DNA from: a virus
Taxonomy: Duplodnaviria > Heunggongvirae > Uroviricota > Caudoviricetes
DNA: 38,344 bases
IMG/VR virus record: IMGVR_UViG_2740892016_000005
Reading direction: 5' to 3' (one strand)
Both the position numbers and the translations under genes were made by a program. Each line of letters starts with the position of its first letter. The stretch's first letter is position 1. This document shows, in pieces, positions 1 to 7,194 of this stretch. Below the pieces are notes generated by a model. The model had not been told where the DNA came from. It searched no databases and saw only the letters and a program-made list of their open reading frames with translations.

Positions 1-216
1 TATTCAAAACAGATTCGTTCAGCAATTGAAGACGGTGTAGTGGAACCGCATGAGAAGACAGCAATTAACGACGAGCTGTACCTCTCAATTTCGAAGCTGC
101 AGGAGCATGCAGCACTGGTCTACAAAATTTTTTGCATTTCAGAAAATAATGACGCCCGCGAGTGTGCAGCTCCGGGCGCCGTGGCGTGTCGTGACTGTGG
201 AGAAACTAACGCATGA
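1..216 (+). CDS. Hypothetical early-region protein, 5' end truncated by window edge
   Basis: Frame 1 is open from base 1 to TGA at 214-216 (71 codons, no in-window start). C-terminus ...[17 protein letters not shown] is Cys-rich. Its stop overlaps the ATG of the next ORF (ATGA). Confidence 0.3.
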
Positions 217-551
217 ACAGTTTAACAACACACTACCGTCGCTCGCAACTGATTGCGCTTCCTGTACCGGGTGGAAAAGCGAAGGTGGAGTATTGCTATG
301 CAGTAAATGTACCAGGTGGCAGGGTAATTGTAACCCACAGCTTTGCAGAGTGGGCTGTGGGTGATTTCAACCGGCAAAAGGAGACAGTCCTTTGCGACAA
401 GTTAACCGCTGGTTCAAAGATCACTACGGAGTACCCGTCAGAGTCATTCGTTGGGAGCCGGAAACACAACGGGTTATCTACCTCCGCGAAGGCTATGAGC
501 ATGAATGCTTCAGTCCGCTCGAACAGTTTCGTCGTAAATTCAGGGAAATAG
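213..551 (+). CDS. Hypothetical protein
   Basis: 112-aa ORF; ATG overlaps the upstream stop and the ORF ends 10 nt before the replication-gene ATG (operon-like packing). No motif recognised; Ser-rich C-terminal half. Confidence 0.35.
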
Positions 552-560
552 AGGTCGGTC

Positions 561-1502
561 ATGAGCACTAAATTAACCGGCTATGTATGGGATGGTTGCG
601 CAGCGTCAGGCATGAAATTATCCAGCGTGGCAATTATGGCACGCCTGGCTGATTTCAGTAATGACGAAGGTGTGTGCTGGCCATCAATTGAAACCATTGC
701 CCGTCAGATTGGCGCGGGGATGAGTACCGTCAGAACGGCTATCGCACGGCTGGAAGCAGAAGGCTGGTTAACGCGTAAGGCGCGTCGCCAGGGTAACCGC
801 AATGCGTCGAACGTCTATCAGCTTAACGTTGCAAAGCTTCAGGCTGCGGCACTTTCTCAACTGTCAGATTCTGACCCGTCAAAATCTGACACATCAAAAT
901 CTGACCCGTCAAAATTTGATGCGTCGAAATCTGGCAAAAAAGCGGGTTTTCACCCGTCAGAATCTGGCGGGGATCCGTCAGTAAAATCAAAACATGATCC
1001 GTCAGATAAAAAACCTTCTCGTCCGGACGCTTCGCAACCGGACACGCAGAAGGCTGAACAGGATTTTTTAACTTGCCATCCTGATGCGGTTGTATTCAGC
1101 CCTAAAAAGCGCCAGTGGGGAACGCAGGATGATTTGACCTGCGCACAGTGGCTCTGGAAAAAAATCATCGCCCTGTACGAGCAGGCCGCCGAATGTGACG
1201 GCGAGGTGGTTCGTCCCAAAGAACCGAACTGGACAGCCTGGGCAAACGAAATTCGCCTGATGTGTGTGCAGGATGGTCGTACTCACAAACAAATCTGCGA
1301 GATGTACAGCCGCGTCAGCCGCGATCCGTTCTGGTGCCGTAACGTGCTTAGCCCGTCGAAGCTGCGGGAAAAATGGGATGAGCTTTCCCTGCGCTTATCG
1401 CCGTCCGTAAGCACGTACACCGAAAAACGCGAAGACCCGTACTTCAAAGCCAGTTACGACAACGTGGACTACAGCCAGATCCCGGCAGGATTCAGGGGGT
1501 GA
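561..1502 (+). CDS. Replication initiation protein, lambda O-like architecture (N-terminal HTH domain, repeat linker, C-terminal domain)
   Basis: 313 aa, RBS agagg upstream. N-terminal HTH-like region (SSVAIMARLADFSNDEGVCWPSIETIARQIGAGMSTVRTAIARLEAEGWL). Central DPSKSD-type peptide repeats are encoded by ~15-bp DNA iterons, as in lambdoid O genes. Assignment by architecture and position, not by search. Confidence 0.6.
   Translation: MSTKLTGYVWDGCAASGMKLSSVAIMARLADFSNDEGVCWPSIETIARQIGAGMSTVRTAIARLEAEGWLTRKARRQGNRNASNVYQLNVAKLQAAALSQLSDSDPSKSDTSKSDPSKFDASKSGKKAGFHPSESGGDPSVKSKHDPSDKKPSRPDASQPDTQKAEQDFLTCHPDAVVFSPKKRQWGTQDDLTCAQWLWKKIIALYEQAAECDGEVVRPKEPNWTAWANEIRLMCVQDGRTHKQICEMYSRVSRDPFWCRNVLSPSKLREKWDELSLRLSPSVSTYTEKREDPYFKASYDNVDYSQIPAGFRG
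862..1013 (+). repeat. Iteron-like direct repeats (candidate replication origin) inside the initiator gene
   Basis: About six tandem 15-bp units of the form CCGTCAAAATCTGAC at 862-935, plus three degenerate spaced copies (CCGTCAGAATCTGGC, CCGTCAGTAAAATCA, CCGTCAGATAAAAAA) up to 1013. Confidence 0.5.
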
Positions 1503-1504
1503 TT

Positions 1505-1993
1505 ATGAGTCTTTTGAATGACGTTCAGAAATTCATTGAAGCCCATCCGGGGTGTACTTCCGGAGACATTGCGGATGCTTTTGCAGGTTACTCACGGCAG
1601 CGCGTTCTGCAGTCAGCAAGCAAGTTACGTCAGAGTGGTCGTGTGGCTCACCGTTGTGAAGGGGATACACGCAGACATTTCCCGCGCCTGACTGAGAGAG
1701 CGCAGGAGGCGGAACCGCAACCAGTTCGTGAAACCAGACCTGTGCGCAATTTCTATGTCGGCACTAACGACCCGCGGGAGATTTTGTGCCTGACCCGCCA
1801 GGCTGAAGAACTGGAGTCCAGGGGCTTATACCGTCGTGCTGCAACCGTGTGGATGGCGGCATTCCGTGAAAGCCACTCCCAGCCAGAACGAAACAATTTT
1901 CTGGCGCGTCGTGAGCGGTGCTTACGGAAAAGCAGCAAGCGCGCTGCATCGGGTGAAGAGTGGTATCTGTCAGGGAATTACGTGGGGGCTTAA
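1505..1993 (+). CDS. Putative transcriptional regulator with PerC-like C-terminal motif
   Basis: ORF 1499..1993 trimmed to ATG 1505 (RBS gggggtga; GTG at 1499 overlaps the upstream stop). Motif LESRGLYRRAATVWMAAF resembles the PerC/Pch-family signature as recalled from memory; the N-terminal region looks winged-helix-like. Confidence 0.5.
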   Translation: MSLLNDVQKFIEAHPGCTSGDIADAFAGYSRQRVLQSASKLRQSGRVAHRCEGDTRRHFPRLTERAQEAEPQPVRETRPVRNFYVGTNDPREILCLTRQAEELESRGLYRRAATVWMAAFRESHSQPERNNFLARRERCLRKSSKRAASGEEWYLSGNYVGA

Positions 1994-2646
1994 TGAGTAA
2001 TAAATATTGCCAGGCGCTGGTGGAGCTGCGGAACAAACCAGCCCATGAACTGAAGGAAGTGGGCGATCAGTGGCGCACGCCGGACAACATTTTCTGGGGA
2101 ATTAACACCCTGTTTGGCCCGTTTGTTCTGGATCTGTTTACTGACGGTGATAACGCCAAATGTGCCGCGTATTACACGGCGGAAGATAACGCGCTGGCGC
2201 ATGACTGGTCAGAACGTCTTGCGGAGCTTAAAGGTGCTGCCTTTGGTAATCCCCCATACAGCCGCGCCAGTCAGCATGAGGGGCAATACATCACCGGCAT
2301 GCGTTACATCATGAAACATGCCAGTGCCATGCGTGATAAGGGCGGGCGCTATGTTTTCCTGATCAAAGCTGCCACCAGCGAAGTGTGGTGGCCGGAAGAT
2401 GCGGACCATATTGCTTTTATTCGCGGGCGTATTGGTTTTGAACTGCCTGCCTGGTTTATCCCGAAGGATGAGAAGCAGGTGCCGACAGGCGCTTTCTTCG
2501 CTGGTGCTATTGCTGTTTTCGACAAGACCTGGAAGGGACCGGCAATCAGCTACATCGGGCGCGATGAACTTGAGGCATGTGGTGAAGCCTTTCTGGTGCA
2601 GGTTCGCCAGCAGGCAGAAAAACTGGTCAGGGAGATGGCGGCATGA
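1993..2646 (+). CDS. Phage Dam-like DNA N6-adenine methyltransferase
   Basis: ATG 1993 overlaps the upstream TAA; ORF track extends to 1960. NPPY catalytic motif (GNPPYS); overall resemblance to phage Dam family proteins of lambdoid nin regions. Confidence 0.8.
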   Translation: MSNKYCQALVELRNKPAHELKEVGDQWRTPDNIFWGINTLFGPFVLDLFTDGDNAKCAAYYTAEDNALAHDWSERLAELKGAAFGNPPYSRASQHEGQYITGMRYIMKHASAMRDKGGRYVFLIKAATSEVWWPEDADHIAFIRGRIGFELPAWFIPKDEKQVPTGAFFAGAIAVFDKTWKGPAISYIGRDELEACGEAFLVQVRQQAEKLVREMAA

Positions 2647-2969
2647 CGACGTTAACTCAATGCCAGCAGCAGGTGCTGGATATGCTGATTTCTTATCAGA
2701 AAGAACGTGGCTTCCCGCCAACCAATCAGGAGGTGGCAACCATGCTGGGATACCGTTCAGTGAATGCAGCGGTAGAACATCTTCGCGCACTGGAGAAAAA
2801 AGGCGTCATCACGATAAAGCGTGGCGTGGCCCGGGGCATCACGCTTCATACCGCGGTGAAGGACGACGACAGCGAGGCGGTCGGGATTATCCGCTCACTG
2901 CTTGTCGGTGAGGAAAACGCCAGGCTGCGTGCAGCCCACTGGTTACATGAGAGGGGCCTGAAAGTATGA
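2643..2969 (+). CDS. LexA N-terminal DNA-binding-domain-like protein lacking the S24 peptidase domain
   Basis: 108 aa; LTQCQQQVLDMLISYQKERGFPPTNQEVATMLGYRSVNAAVEHLRALEKKGVITIKRGVARGITL aligns by eye with the E. coli LexA N-terminal domain ([55 protein letters not shown]...). No Ser/Lys protease domain follows. ATGA overlap with Dam stop. Confidence 0.6.
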   Translation: MTTLTQCQQQVLDMLISYQKERGFPPTNQEVATMLGYRSVNAAVEHLRALEKKGVITIKRGVARGITLHTAVKDDDSEAVGIIRSLLVGEENARLRAAHWLHERGLKV

Positions 2970-3355
2970 AGCTGATCCTGCCTTTTCCGCCCAGCGTGAA
3001 CACGTACTGGCGACACCCCAACAAAGGGGCGTTTGCTGGTAAGAGTCTGATAAGCGCGGCGGGGCGAAAATTCCAGAGCGCGGCGTGCGCAGCAATAGTT
3101 GAGCAGTTACGTCGTCTGCCGAAACCAACGTCGGCACCTGCTTCAGTGGAGATCGTGTTGTTTCCTCCGGATAACCGGATCCGCGATCTGGACAACTATA
3201 ACAAGGCGCTGTTTGACGCCCTGACCCACGCGGGGGTGTGGGAAGACGACAGTCAGGTGAAAAGAATGCTGGTGGAGTGGGGACCGGTTATCCCGGAAGG
3301 GAAGGTCGAGATCACTATCAGTAAGTATGAGAAACCGGCGGGTGCAGCCGCCTGA
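2966..3355 (+). CDS. rusA: RusA-family Holliday junction resolvase
   Basis: 129 aa; LPFPPSVNTYWRH...RDLDNYNKALFDALTHAGVWEDDSQV matches the RusA pattern (PWPPSNNRYYRH...[26 protein letters not shown]). ATGA overlap with upstream gene. Confidence 0.85.
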   Translation: MKLILPFPPSVNTYWRHPNKGAFAGKSLISAAGRKFQSAACAAIVEQLRRLPKPTSAPASVEIVLFPPDNRIRDLDNYNKALFDALTHAGVWEDDSQVKRMLVEWGPVIPEGKVEITISKYEKPAGAAA

Positions 3356-3374
3356 TTAAGAGGAGAAACGAAGT

Positions 3375-5742: not shown

Positions 5743-7194
5743 TTATTTTATTTTGCTTACTATATTTGTAATAAGTGGGTCAAATTTCTCATCAATAATT
5801 TCAATATATTTTTTTATTGCTAAAGTTCTAATTACTTCCTCCTCACATTCTGCTTCTTTAGCAATTGCTTGAGTGTAATTGTGATGATCACTAATCCCTT
5901 CCTTTTTTATTAACCAATCAAAATCAATATGATACTCCTTGTAGAGGAATTTTTTTACTTCCTCATGTTGAAATACTTCTACTTCTGGTGGCCTATTGCC
6001 AGGGAAAGAAAATAAATCATCTTTAATGTTTTCTCCAACATCTGCATCTCTTACGGCAATAACATTAAGGCCTGCTTTCTTGAATACCTCGACTGCTTGT
6101 CGGACTGCATCTTTATCTCCAATATCAGTGATTTGAATGGATTTAAGAATGTCTCTCCGCTTTGCTCTAATTACTTCACTAAGTAAAACTTTTGCAAACT
6201 GGTCTTCTACGCAAATATGCAGCCCTTTAAACTGCCCATCAGACAGTATTGATCTCACATGAGTTGTTGAAATTCCATCTTTGATATAGACACCAGTCTG
6301 ATCTCTAATAAGTAATTTTCGTGCATCAGGAGGTAAAGCATTTAATATCACACTTGAGTGTGTTGATAATATTATTTGATGTTTTCTACGTTGACATACT
6401 TCCATTAAATATTTTGCAAATTCATACTGTGCGCTTTCATGAAGAGATGTTTCTGGTTCTTCTAGTACGAAAAGACTTTGCTCTGGAGCTGTTTCAAGCA
6501 TATCAACCGTATAAAGAACTCTTCCTTCGCCAAACCCCATGTTATTTTCAGAATAAGAATACCCAAGTCTTTCAACAATACCAATTTCTGAACGACGTGC
6601 TCTATGAGAAATTCCTTGGAATGCGATATCATCATATGGATGACCTATTATTTTTGCCATCTTCAATATTACTGAATGGTCGACGCTTCTTCTCTCTGTT
6701 AAATCAAAGTCTTTACCGCCATAAACACTTATATCTCTACGTTCTACTTTTGGAATATAGACAGTAAAACCAATGTAAAAACAGTGTCTTTCTGGTTGTC
6801 TTTTATATCCAGACCAAGAAGACTTTATGCGAGTGACAGTCACATCTTGTGTTTTCGTTGAATCATTTGTTTCATATTTATAAATGACACTGGCGTCATT
6901 ATCGAAAGGGGCTGGATCGGCTTTAGATACAGGGAAAAAATCTTTAATATATAATCTCTTATATTCACGGGCTGTAACTGGTTTTTTATATGCGCATATT
7001 GCTAACTGCCCAAGAGTGCTTTTCCCAGCGCCGTTTAGCCCTGATATTGCAGTTACCGGAAAATTTATATTTAATGTTAGTTTTTTTATTCCTCGAAATC
7101 CATTTATCTCTAGACTTTTAATTACGGAGCCAAAGTTTGAGTATCTATTTTTATCAAAGTACATGCATTTTAGTATATTTTTTATGTCTGACAT
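5743..7194 (-). CDS. ABC-type (AAA_15/21-like) ATPase with C-terminal TOPRIM-like domain; OLD/PARIS-like candidate defence nuclease
   Basis: 483 aa. Walker A GLNGAGKST; Walker B/D-loop SLFVLEEPETSLH; H-loop ILSTHSS; C-terminal acidic motifs LHICVEDQ and VIAVRDADVGE consistent with TOPRIM. Gene is AT-rich relative to flanks; RBS aggaaag; own promoter-like signals. Confidence 0.85.
   Translation of the reverse strand: MSDIKNILKCMYFDKNRYSNFGSVIKSLEINGFRGIKKLTLNINFPVTAISGLNGAGKSTLGQLAICAYKKPVTAREYKRLYIKDFFPVSKADPAPFDNDASVIYKYETNDSTKTQDVTVTRIKSSWSGYKRQPERHCFYIGFTVYIPKVERRDISVYGGKDFDLTERRSVDHSVILKMAKIIGHPYDDIAFQGISHRARRSEIGIVERLGYSYSENNMGFGEGRVLYTVDMLETAPEQSLFVLEEPETSLHESAQYEFAKYLMEVCQRRKHQIILSTHSSVILNALPPDARKLLIRDQTGVYIKDGISTTHVRSILSDGQFKGLHICVEDQFAKVLLSEVIRAKRRDILKSIQITDIGDKDAVRQAVEVFKKAGLNVIAVRDADVGENIKDDLFSFPGNRPPEVEVFQHEEVKKFLYKEYHIDFDWLIKKEGISDHHNYTQAIAKEAECEEEVIRTLAIKKYIEIIDEKFDPLITNIVSKIK

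Follow-up and report, generated by a model that had tools for sequence, protein, structure and literature searches.

The initiator gene and its surroundings

The DNA analyzed here, referred to as the window, is a stretch of 38,344 nucleotides from a prophage. To the left of the window, this prophage encodes int, an xis-like gene, yfdT, yfdR, yfdQ, yfdP, and cI. The rightward order is cro, ymfL, an open reading frame (ORF) at 213–551, an ORF of the DUF4222 family, the gene of the replication initiator, a PerC-type regulator gene, and the gene for Dam, after which come genes for a LexA-DNA-binding-domain protein, RusA, a KilA-N protein, a DUF968 protein, and Q. The genes around the initiator and the parts of the initiator itself are as follows.

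1–571, plus strand: upstream genes, namely, the 3' end of ymfL (cII-like; 1–216), the ORF at 213–551, and an overlapping DUF4222 ORF (392–571); features of a loader are absent
561–1502, plus strand: initiator gene, 313 amino acids (aa), from the family shared by SfII orf41 and the YfdO lineage of CPS-53
561–872, plus strand: N-terminal winged-helix DNA-binding domain, aa 1–104, of the HTH_36 type and not the Phage_rep_O type
867–1037, plus strand: DNA of the disordered interdomain linker, aa 103–159, with SDPSK-type pentapeptide repeats (from pLDDT and translation)
1044–1394, plus strand: C-terminal helical domain, aa 162–278, homologous to its counterparts in lambda O and phi80 gp15
1395–1499, plus strand: disordered C-terminal tail, aa 279–313 (35 residues), ending in a DnaT-type IPAGFRG (nucleotides 1479–1499)
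1493–1498, plus strand: AGGGGG, the Arg-Gly codons of the tail and the Shine-Dalgarno sequence of the next gene (ATG at 1505)
1499–1993, plus strand: winged-helix and PerC/ANR-type regulator gene (PF06069, E = 7.5e-9; NCBIfam ANR, E = 4e-5), not a loader
1993–2646, plus strand: phage Dam methyltransferase gene (PF05869, E = 1e-45)

The initiator has two domains, the first of which is predicted to bind DNA. Residues 23 to 70 match PF13730 (HTH_36; E = 4e-11), the AlphaFold2 model of this N-domain consists of helices and a wing, and its Foldseek matches are MarR-like winged helices. In the AlphaFold2 model, pLDDT falls below 50 in the linker (residues 103–131 and 133–159), reaches 88 to 96 over the confident helical fold of aa 162–278, and ranges from 45 to 65 in the tail. 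The C-domain shares 36% identity with lambda O (E = 4e-26) and also matches phi80 gp15 (E = 2e-25). O-type initiators are known to be modular, with an HTH N-domain joined to varied C-terminal modules that include the DnaT C-terminal domain (PMC5509034). The same study describes DopC and DopE as domesticated lambda O and P genes (Brezellec et al. 2017, PMC5509034); unlike the initiator examined here, DopC is chromosomal, has no iterons, and is paired with a P-derived partner.

The locus departs from the lambdoid O-type pattern in that a cotranscribed P, DnaC-like, or DnaB-like partner gene does not lie directly downstream. The Pfam matches listed above identify the next two genes as those for a regulator and a methyltransferase, as the original prediction had it. 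No helicase, loader, or primase is present in the RefSeq annotation of the whole prophage or in that of the complete SfII genome in GenBank. tblastn searches of the prophage and of SfII with E. coli DnaC, phage DnaC, lambda P, phi80 gp14, and three other P-family proteins gave no match, and the sole Walker A motif found in a scan from int to Q belongs to an OLD-like nuclease encoded on the other strand at 5743–7194 of the window. The absence of a recognizable loader gene after the initiator, proposed earlier from the window alone, is therefore borne out by annotation, tblastn, and Walker A scans alike. Since neither the prophage nor SfII has a loader, the alternative offered at the same time, namely, a partner encoded to the left of the window, is refuted; a search of the ORFs at 1–551 and of the upstream DNA for loader motifs likewise found none.

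Two possible sources of a loader were considered and ruled out. A hidden loader in the ORFs at 1–571 or farther left is excluded by the same annotation, tblastn, and Walker A results. The PerC-like downstream gene is not a consistent companion, given that the genes found after solo initiators vary (PerC, Dam, MT-A70, DUF977, and ParB-like) and that initiator-DnaC pairs, as in locus L109, can likewise be followed by small winged-helix genes of this kind.

Viable phages, among them the relative SfII (orf41), share the module at 97 to 98% DNA identity; in both SfII and SfIV, the gene order is the same and a loader is likewise missing. Further relatives are the E. coli prophages CPS-53 (yfdO/yfdN) and e14 (ymfL region). 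About half of the complete E. coli genomes that we searched had a match to the module, and in about a fifth of those searched the match covered most of the 3-kb query.

An iteron array within the initiator gene

The origin features lie inside the initiator gene and are given below without a strand.

861–968: iteron array, six copies of CCGTCARAATCTGAC (13 to 15 bp) starting at 861, 876, 891, 906, 921, and 954, each with a GTCAnA/TnTGAC dyad
936–953: A-tract/T-tract spacer GCAAAAAAGCGGGTTTTCAC between iterons 5 and 6, kept in homologues from other genera (by-eye alignment of nine origins)
972–1019: right-hand part of the origin, a candidate unwinding region with two GATCCGTCAG half-repeats in an AT-rich patch

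Tandem Repeats Finder reported a 15-bp array at 870–933, with 4.3 copies of the consensus TCTGACCCGTCAAAA. When up to two mismatches were allowed, CCGTCARAATCTG had 11 matches in the 38-kb window, 8 of them within 861–970; the expectation is 1.86 matches per whole window, and 11 was reached in 0 of 100 shuffles. On the plus strand, the first five iterons keep a 15-bp period, and the sixth stands apart. The first and last copies are near-palindromes that match the minus strand too. The array falls within ORF 561–1502 and encodes aa 101–151, a segment that is disordered in the AlphaFold2 model, which agrees with the original prediction that it encodes the interdomain linker. The span proposed earlier for the repeats, 862–1013, was also approximately right, the iterons beginning at 861 and the half-repeats ending at 1010.

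Directly right of the iterons, the sequence from 980 to 1019 has a GC content of 30%, and this adjoining AT-rich patch is a candidate unwinding region. The half-repeats GATCCGTCAG(T/A)TAAA occupy 972–986 and 996–1010, 24 bp apart. Each contains a GATC site (972–975 and 996–999), and the pair is conserved in homologous origins. The phage Dam methyltransferase may be linked to these two sites.

DnaA boxes near the origin were sought and rejected as a component: none occurs within 204–3374, and their number in the whole window is at chance level. Single iteron-binding winged-helix initiators that rely on host DnaB-DnaC are familiar from plasmids (pSC101 RepA, R6K pi, and RK2 TrfA), whose origins normally need DnaA boxes too. 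The origin described here differs in having none in that span, and the proteins are unrelated by sequence.

We gathered 80 loci encoding the C-domain type of this initiator from one-genome-per-species data and compared arrays, tails, and next genes in 74 species-level related initiators. A first scan of IMG/VR with the C-domain alignment had returned near-identical loci only, with no added diversity. Nearly all of the 74 carry a tandem array at the equivalent, linker-coding place. The array sequences vary, several repeating every 22 or 23 bp, and the phi80-type arrays match the annotated gp15 binding sites. The iteron motif of the window recurs inside the gene solely in loci with an N-domain identity of 72% or more, and elsewhere in the loci it is essentially missing. 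Its carriers belong to Escherichia, Pantoea, Providencia, and Proteus, and they retain it despite C-domain identities anywhere from 46 to 99% and differing tail classes. L091, with a C-domain of 96% identity and an unrelated N-domain, lacks the motif. Across these genera, the layout of iterons, A/T-tract spacer, last palindromic copy, and two GATC half-repeats is kept. Judged by these comparisons, iteron sequence goes with the N-terminal winged-helix domain in different genera and not with the C-domain, and the in-gene copies in the linker DNA are predicted to be cognate to that domain.

All six copies in the window share one reading frame and encode a pentapeptide repeat. The array might accordingly be a mere SDPSK protein linker, with the true origin elsewhere, or the module might be a decayed remnant that no longer replicates. 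The latter would suit this particular copy of the prophage, which looks defective, with a frameshifted integrase gene and an internal stop in a capsid gene. We nevertheless consider both versions very improbable. Each unit is dyad symmetric and matches both strands, the array sequence covaries with the DNA-binding domain, and the 22- and 23-bp periods at the equivalent place in relatives cannot encode a peptide repeat. In addition, inducible phages hold the module nearly unchanged, and the origins of lambda and phi80 share the layout. On the comparative evidence, we take the repeats to be iterons and not merely a repetitive linker.

The resemblance to lambda O with ori-lambda and to phi80 gp15 extends to an origin within the gene, iterons in the linker DNA, and an AT-rich region to the right. 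The lambda and phi80 iterons are annotated at the equivalent place in their genes, and both origins are experimentally defined. Together with the C-domain homology and the arrays in relatives, this shared site upholds the earlier description of the locus as a classic lambdoid ori arrangement. The systems differ in four ways. The N-domains of lambda O and phi80 gp15 are of the PF04492 (Phage_rep_O) type, whereas that of the initiator here is HTH_36. Lambda and phi80 have four iterons at a spacing of about 20 to 23 bp, in contrast to six at 15 bp. Their initiator genes are followed by P or gp14, and the one in the window by neither. Finally, lambda O ends in NTDWIYGVDL, whereas the initiator described here ends in IPAGFRG after a disordered tail.

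A DnaT-type peptide at the C terminus

The last nine residues of the initiator, SQIPAGFRG, and of E. coli DnaT, SQIPPGFRG, are identical at eight positions; in DnaT, too, the motif, of the form (S/D)xIPxGFRG, comes after a flexible segment. BLASTP aligned the two proteins over the last 9 residues only. In a profile-profile comparison, the tail alone aligned (33 columns, E = 2e-5), and the globular domains did not. The three-helix DNA-binding domain of DnaT (PF17948) is absent from the initiator, and BLASTP revealed neither the N-terminal oligomerization domain of DnaT nor its acidic PriB-binding linker. Because the DnaT domains are missing and the resemblance is confined to the tail motif, the database label “primosomal protein I” is misleading.

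The motif is strongly conserved on both sides of this comparison. We retrieved DnaT orthologues with 71% or more identity to the E. coli protein; IPxGFRG is the C terminus of almost all of them, whereas a few add two residues (GFRGAK), and one has GLRG. The initiator homologues compared, 73 proteins with identities as low as 56%, have a variable stretch and, after it, invariant P308, G310, F311, and R312. One large subclade of initiators has VNHISEPDTEIPPGFRG, compared with VNTVSEPDSQIPPGFRG in DnaT. When the codons of the tail were compared with those of dnaT, 26 to 33 of 42 first and second positions were identical, as were 5 to 13 of 21 third positions. With third positions scrambled to this degree, the likeness has been kept by selection at the peptide level, and the idea that the tail was lately acquired as DNA from the dnaT gene of the host can be discarded.

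Part of the conservation may nonetheless lie in the DNA. In 48 distinct junctions between the initiator and the next gene, the tail arginine is encoded by the rare codon AGG in 42 and the following codon is GGG in 40, placing AGGGGG 6 to 7 nt before the next start. These two codons double as a ribosome-binding site, and so the “RG” of the motif may be kept partly at the DNA level. The origin and the initiator could then be as described above while the tail is a by-product of a DNA-level junction (Shine-Dalgarno sequence, stop, and start) and of a recombination joint, the helicase being brought in through the O-type C-domain or by another route. SfV orf39 is what an in-gene 3' mosaic joint would be expected to produce: its last 24 residues are identical to those of the initiator, and the downstream genes are shared as well, on a protein that differs in N-domain specificity, in its repeats, and in an unrelated C-domain. 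It also lacks a loader. Several features of the tails are at odds with this explanation, which we think unlikely. In two lineages (L093 and L103), the arginine is kept as CGT or CGC outside an AGGGGG context. The glycine, isoleucine, and proline codons vary synonymously while the residues stay, and the motif persists in L099 to L101, where the next gene starts 40 nt away. A junction by-product would also leave unexplained why the motif is retained in chromosomal DnaT and why lambda-type tails occur only with P and DnaT-type tails never do, an association described in the following section.

Tail class and the type of helicase loader

We compared tail class with the identity of the next gene in clusters, defined at 80% identity, of species-level loci with an O-type C-domain. 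Where the tail is of the lambda type (..NTDWxYGV..) or of the WNxxEAWE type (..WNSPEAWENTL), a Phage_lambda_P gene comes next in all 14 clusters (PF06992, E = 3e-58), and its start overlaps the stop codon of the initiator gene. DnaT-type tails are followed by P in none of 13 clusters; a DnaC homologue is found in 2, located 2 nt downstream and 48% identical to E. coli DnaC, and a loader is absent in the other 11. The association between tail class and P has a Fisher P value of 5e-8, computed on clusters that are related and thus not phylogenetically independent. C-domains about 70% identical to each other carry different tails, in agreement with the presence or absence of P, and P comes next in three of three initiators that combine a DnaT-type C-domain with a P-type tail.

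The converse comparison started from the loader. We found 80 IMG/VR loci (L168 to L247) with a phage DnaC and recovered the upstream gene at 79 of them. All 79 end in PxGF[R/K]G, in the fuller form PDxx(I/V)PxGF(R/K)G, and they fall into three unrelated C-domain types, namely, a true DnaT domain (45% identical to residues 85–179 of DnaT), the type of lambda O, and that of SfV orf39. These initiator-DnaC modules, of which Escherichia phage vB_EcoS-613R10 provides an example, have the same tail motif as the initiator in the window, and some share its O-type C-domain at 42 to 47% identity over most of the protein. They differ in encoding their own DnaC homologue 2 nt past the tail, which the window phage does not. 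The same order is found on the host chromosome, where dnaT lies immediately upstream of dnaC. In L261, a GFRG tail is directly followed by a 3' remnant of dnaC, an arrangement that suggests how solo initiators arise. The DNA that encodes the tail is physically continuous with the beginning of the next gene; a tail and its loader, dnaC included, could therefore move as a single mosaic unit.

Initiators upstream of more distant DnaC-like loaders (31 to 44% identity to E. coli DnaC) have other C termini: PEGWA, LPDWMRGEDE, EIPSWARD, and STNFNW. These ends, which differ from GFRG, count against a reading in which the tail and DnaC belong together.

The partner of the tail could also be DnaB or another host factor rather than DnaC. 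The motif is that of DnaT, a member of the PriA-PriB-DnaT preprimosome, and DnaT residues 154–179 contribute modestly to cooperative binding of single-stranded DNA; the tail might thus recruit DnaB itself, or PriA/PriB with the restart primosome at an origin R-loop or D-loop. We hold this, too, to be improbable, about as much so as a junction by-product. Cryo-electron microscopy places PriA on the DnaT C-domain and PriB on the acidic linker, not on the tail. Moreover, the tail class tracks the type of the next loader gene (DnaC versus P), and such tracking is hard to explain with DnaB, PriA, or PriB as the partner, since none of these differs among the hosts.

From these comparisons, we infer that the tail docks DnaC-DnaB; if it does, a solo initiator would use the host complex. 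The original prediction had proposed that the C-terminal domain might recruit host DnaC/DnaB directly. Direct recruitment is favored by the comparative evidence, which also indicates the tail, a part that the prediction had not noticed.

A model for initiation without a phage loader

In our model, dimers of the winged-helix N-domain would bind the six dyad-symmetric iterons, and the C-domains would hold the bound initiators together in an O-some-like complex, which would destabilize the adjoining AT-rich, GATC-containing stretch. The flexible IPxGFRG tails would then capture host DnaB6-DnaC6, most likely via DnaC, by the peptide that, as we propose, DnaT too uses to pass DnaB-DnaC on to the restart primosome. 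The phage would need no P or DnaC gene of its own. YfdR, from the same phage family, binds DnaA and inhibits the DnaA-DnaB interaction (PMC4776307), which would free the host helicase-loader complex for the phage; its gene is among those left of the window in this prophage. Overall, we consider it reasonably likely that positions 561–1502 serve an SfII/SfV/CPS-53-type lambdoid prophage as replication origin as well as initiator gene and that the IPxGFRG tails of the initiator capture host DnaB-DnaC.

A broader reading extends beyond this locus. The tail may be a portable, loader-specific adaptor, with lambda-type tails serving P-type loaders and DnaT-type tails serving DnaC, whether from the phage or from the host. 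We put forward only tentatively, as somewhat less probable than the reading of the locus itself, that the C-terminal peptide of these initiators is a docking tag shuffled independently of the C-domain and that IPxGFRG is the missing element by which DnaT and loader-less phages capture DnaB-DnaC.

Several parts of this picture are not new. The origin-in-gene layout is classical, and save for its DnaT-type tail, the element is a lambdoid origin of an ordinary and very common kind. The module is already contained in published phage genomes, labeled “O protein family,” “replication protein,” or “primosomal protein.” A 2006 review by Weigel and Seitz reportedly classifies loader-less replication modules, and to our knowledge the contact between lambda O and P is structurally unresolved. 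We found no description of the DnaT-type tail or of a rule linking tail to loader in the literature searched. The SfII paper names orf41 to orf45 a “replication module” and does not analyze the origin, the missing loader, or the tail (PMC3851460). Every solved structure lacks DnaT residues 154–179, the conserved last 26 of the protein, and the published accounts give its mode of DnaB-DnaC recruitment as unknown (PMC13377028, PMC4132743), a view still found in structural work from 2026. The authors of the preprimosome structure favor the N-terminal domain of DnaT as the recruiter of DnaB-DnaC, a proposal that counts against the tail in that role.

The DnaT-type tail gives a specific, testable hypothesis for helicase recruitment, including that by DnaT itself. 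It offers one short peptide as the candidate contact through which PriA-PriB-DnaT would hand DnaB-DnaC over to a stalled fork. The homologues provide natural swap experiments, in which one C-domain occurs with different tails and different C-domains occur with one tail, and the 0.9-kb fragment of origin plus initiator is a simple, self-contained test system. If the docking-tag reading is true, the host dnaT-dnaC operon would be laid out like a phage cassette of initiator tail plus DnaC, and the loss of a phage dnaC, as in the L261 remnant, would be a route to solo initiators. For the phages themselves, recruitment by the tail would explain how a prophage module common in E. coli replicates with a single replication gene.

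Possible loader loss and further initiator classes

Two further groups of comparison loci stand out. The first is another class of O-type initiators, homologs with a lambda O-type C-terminal domain, found in Proteus, Providencia, Sodalis, Edwardsiella, and Morganella (L112, L114-L124, L126, L128, and L129); its members are extended at the C-terminus by about 60 residues (..AWRGIWQQVAEQ..). In these loci there is neither a downstream loader gene nor a DnaT-type tail, the C-terminal GFRG peptide of the window's initiator; therefore, this class may represent a second route to loader-less replication. In the second group, L249-L252, the initiator genes precede DnaC-like loaders that are more divergent, some with zinc-ribbon N-extensions, and the initiators carry other aromatic tails (PEGWA, LPDWMRGEDE, EIPSWARD, and STNFNW). 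These may be additional tail-loader pairs. In the comparison locus L261, a GFRG-tailed initiator is immediately followed by remains of two loader genes (L261:3977-4596): a 3' remnant of dnaC, covering amino acids 173-242, and a P gene of which the 3' half is present. The arrangement looks like the scar of loader loss or replacement.

The end of the window's initiator gene also has a second function: the rare Arg codon AGG and the adjoining GGG (1493-1498) form the Shine-Dalgarno sequence for the gene that follows. Codons play the same double role at the host dnaT-dnaC junction (AGA GGG TAA).

Origin GATC sites and phage Dam

Two features point to a possible layer of origin regulation:

972-975 and 996-999, GATC pair spaced 24 bp apart, within the AT-rich region on the right-hand side of the origin
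1993-2646, dam, phage Dam methyltransferase gene, 1 kb downstream of the origin

Both GATC sites are conserved in all nine same-specificity homologs, the initiators that share the iteron motif and a similar N-terminal domain, which span four genera. Given this pair and the phage-encoded Dam, it is possible that origin firing is under Dam/SeqA control.

Neighboring genes and state of the prophage

Upstream of the initiator, two annotated ORFs, one or both of which may be genuine, overlap in different frames:

213-551, equivalent of SfII orf40 (phrog_1170)
392-571, DUF4222 protein in the RefSeq annotation (PF13973, E 8.6e-19)

The present prophage copy is probably defective, since its integrase is frameshifted (L001:2343-3462, in the locus that includes DNA left of the window) and an internal stop lies within the prohead protease/major capsid fusion gene (L248:4031-6058, about 15318-17345 in the window). 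The sole Walker A motif of the early region belongs to a nuclease that is probably a defense moron:

5743-7194 (-), OLD-like ATP-dependent nuclease, 483 aa, between Q and the lysis genes

Left of the window, the same prophage carries a yfd cluster:

L001:3734-6308, yfdT, yfdR, a YfdQ-family gene, and yfdP

YfdR binds DnaA and inhibits the DnaA-DnaB interaction (PMC4776307); this may help a loader-less phage to compete for the host helicase.
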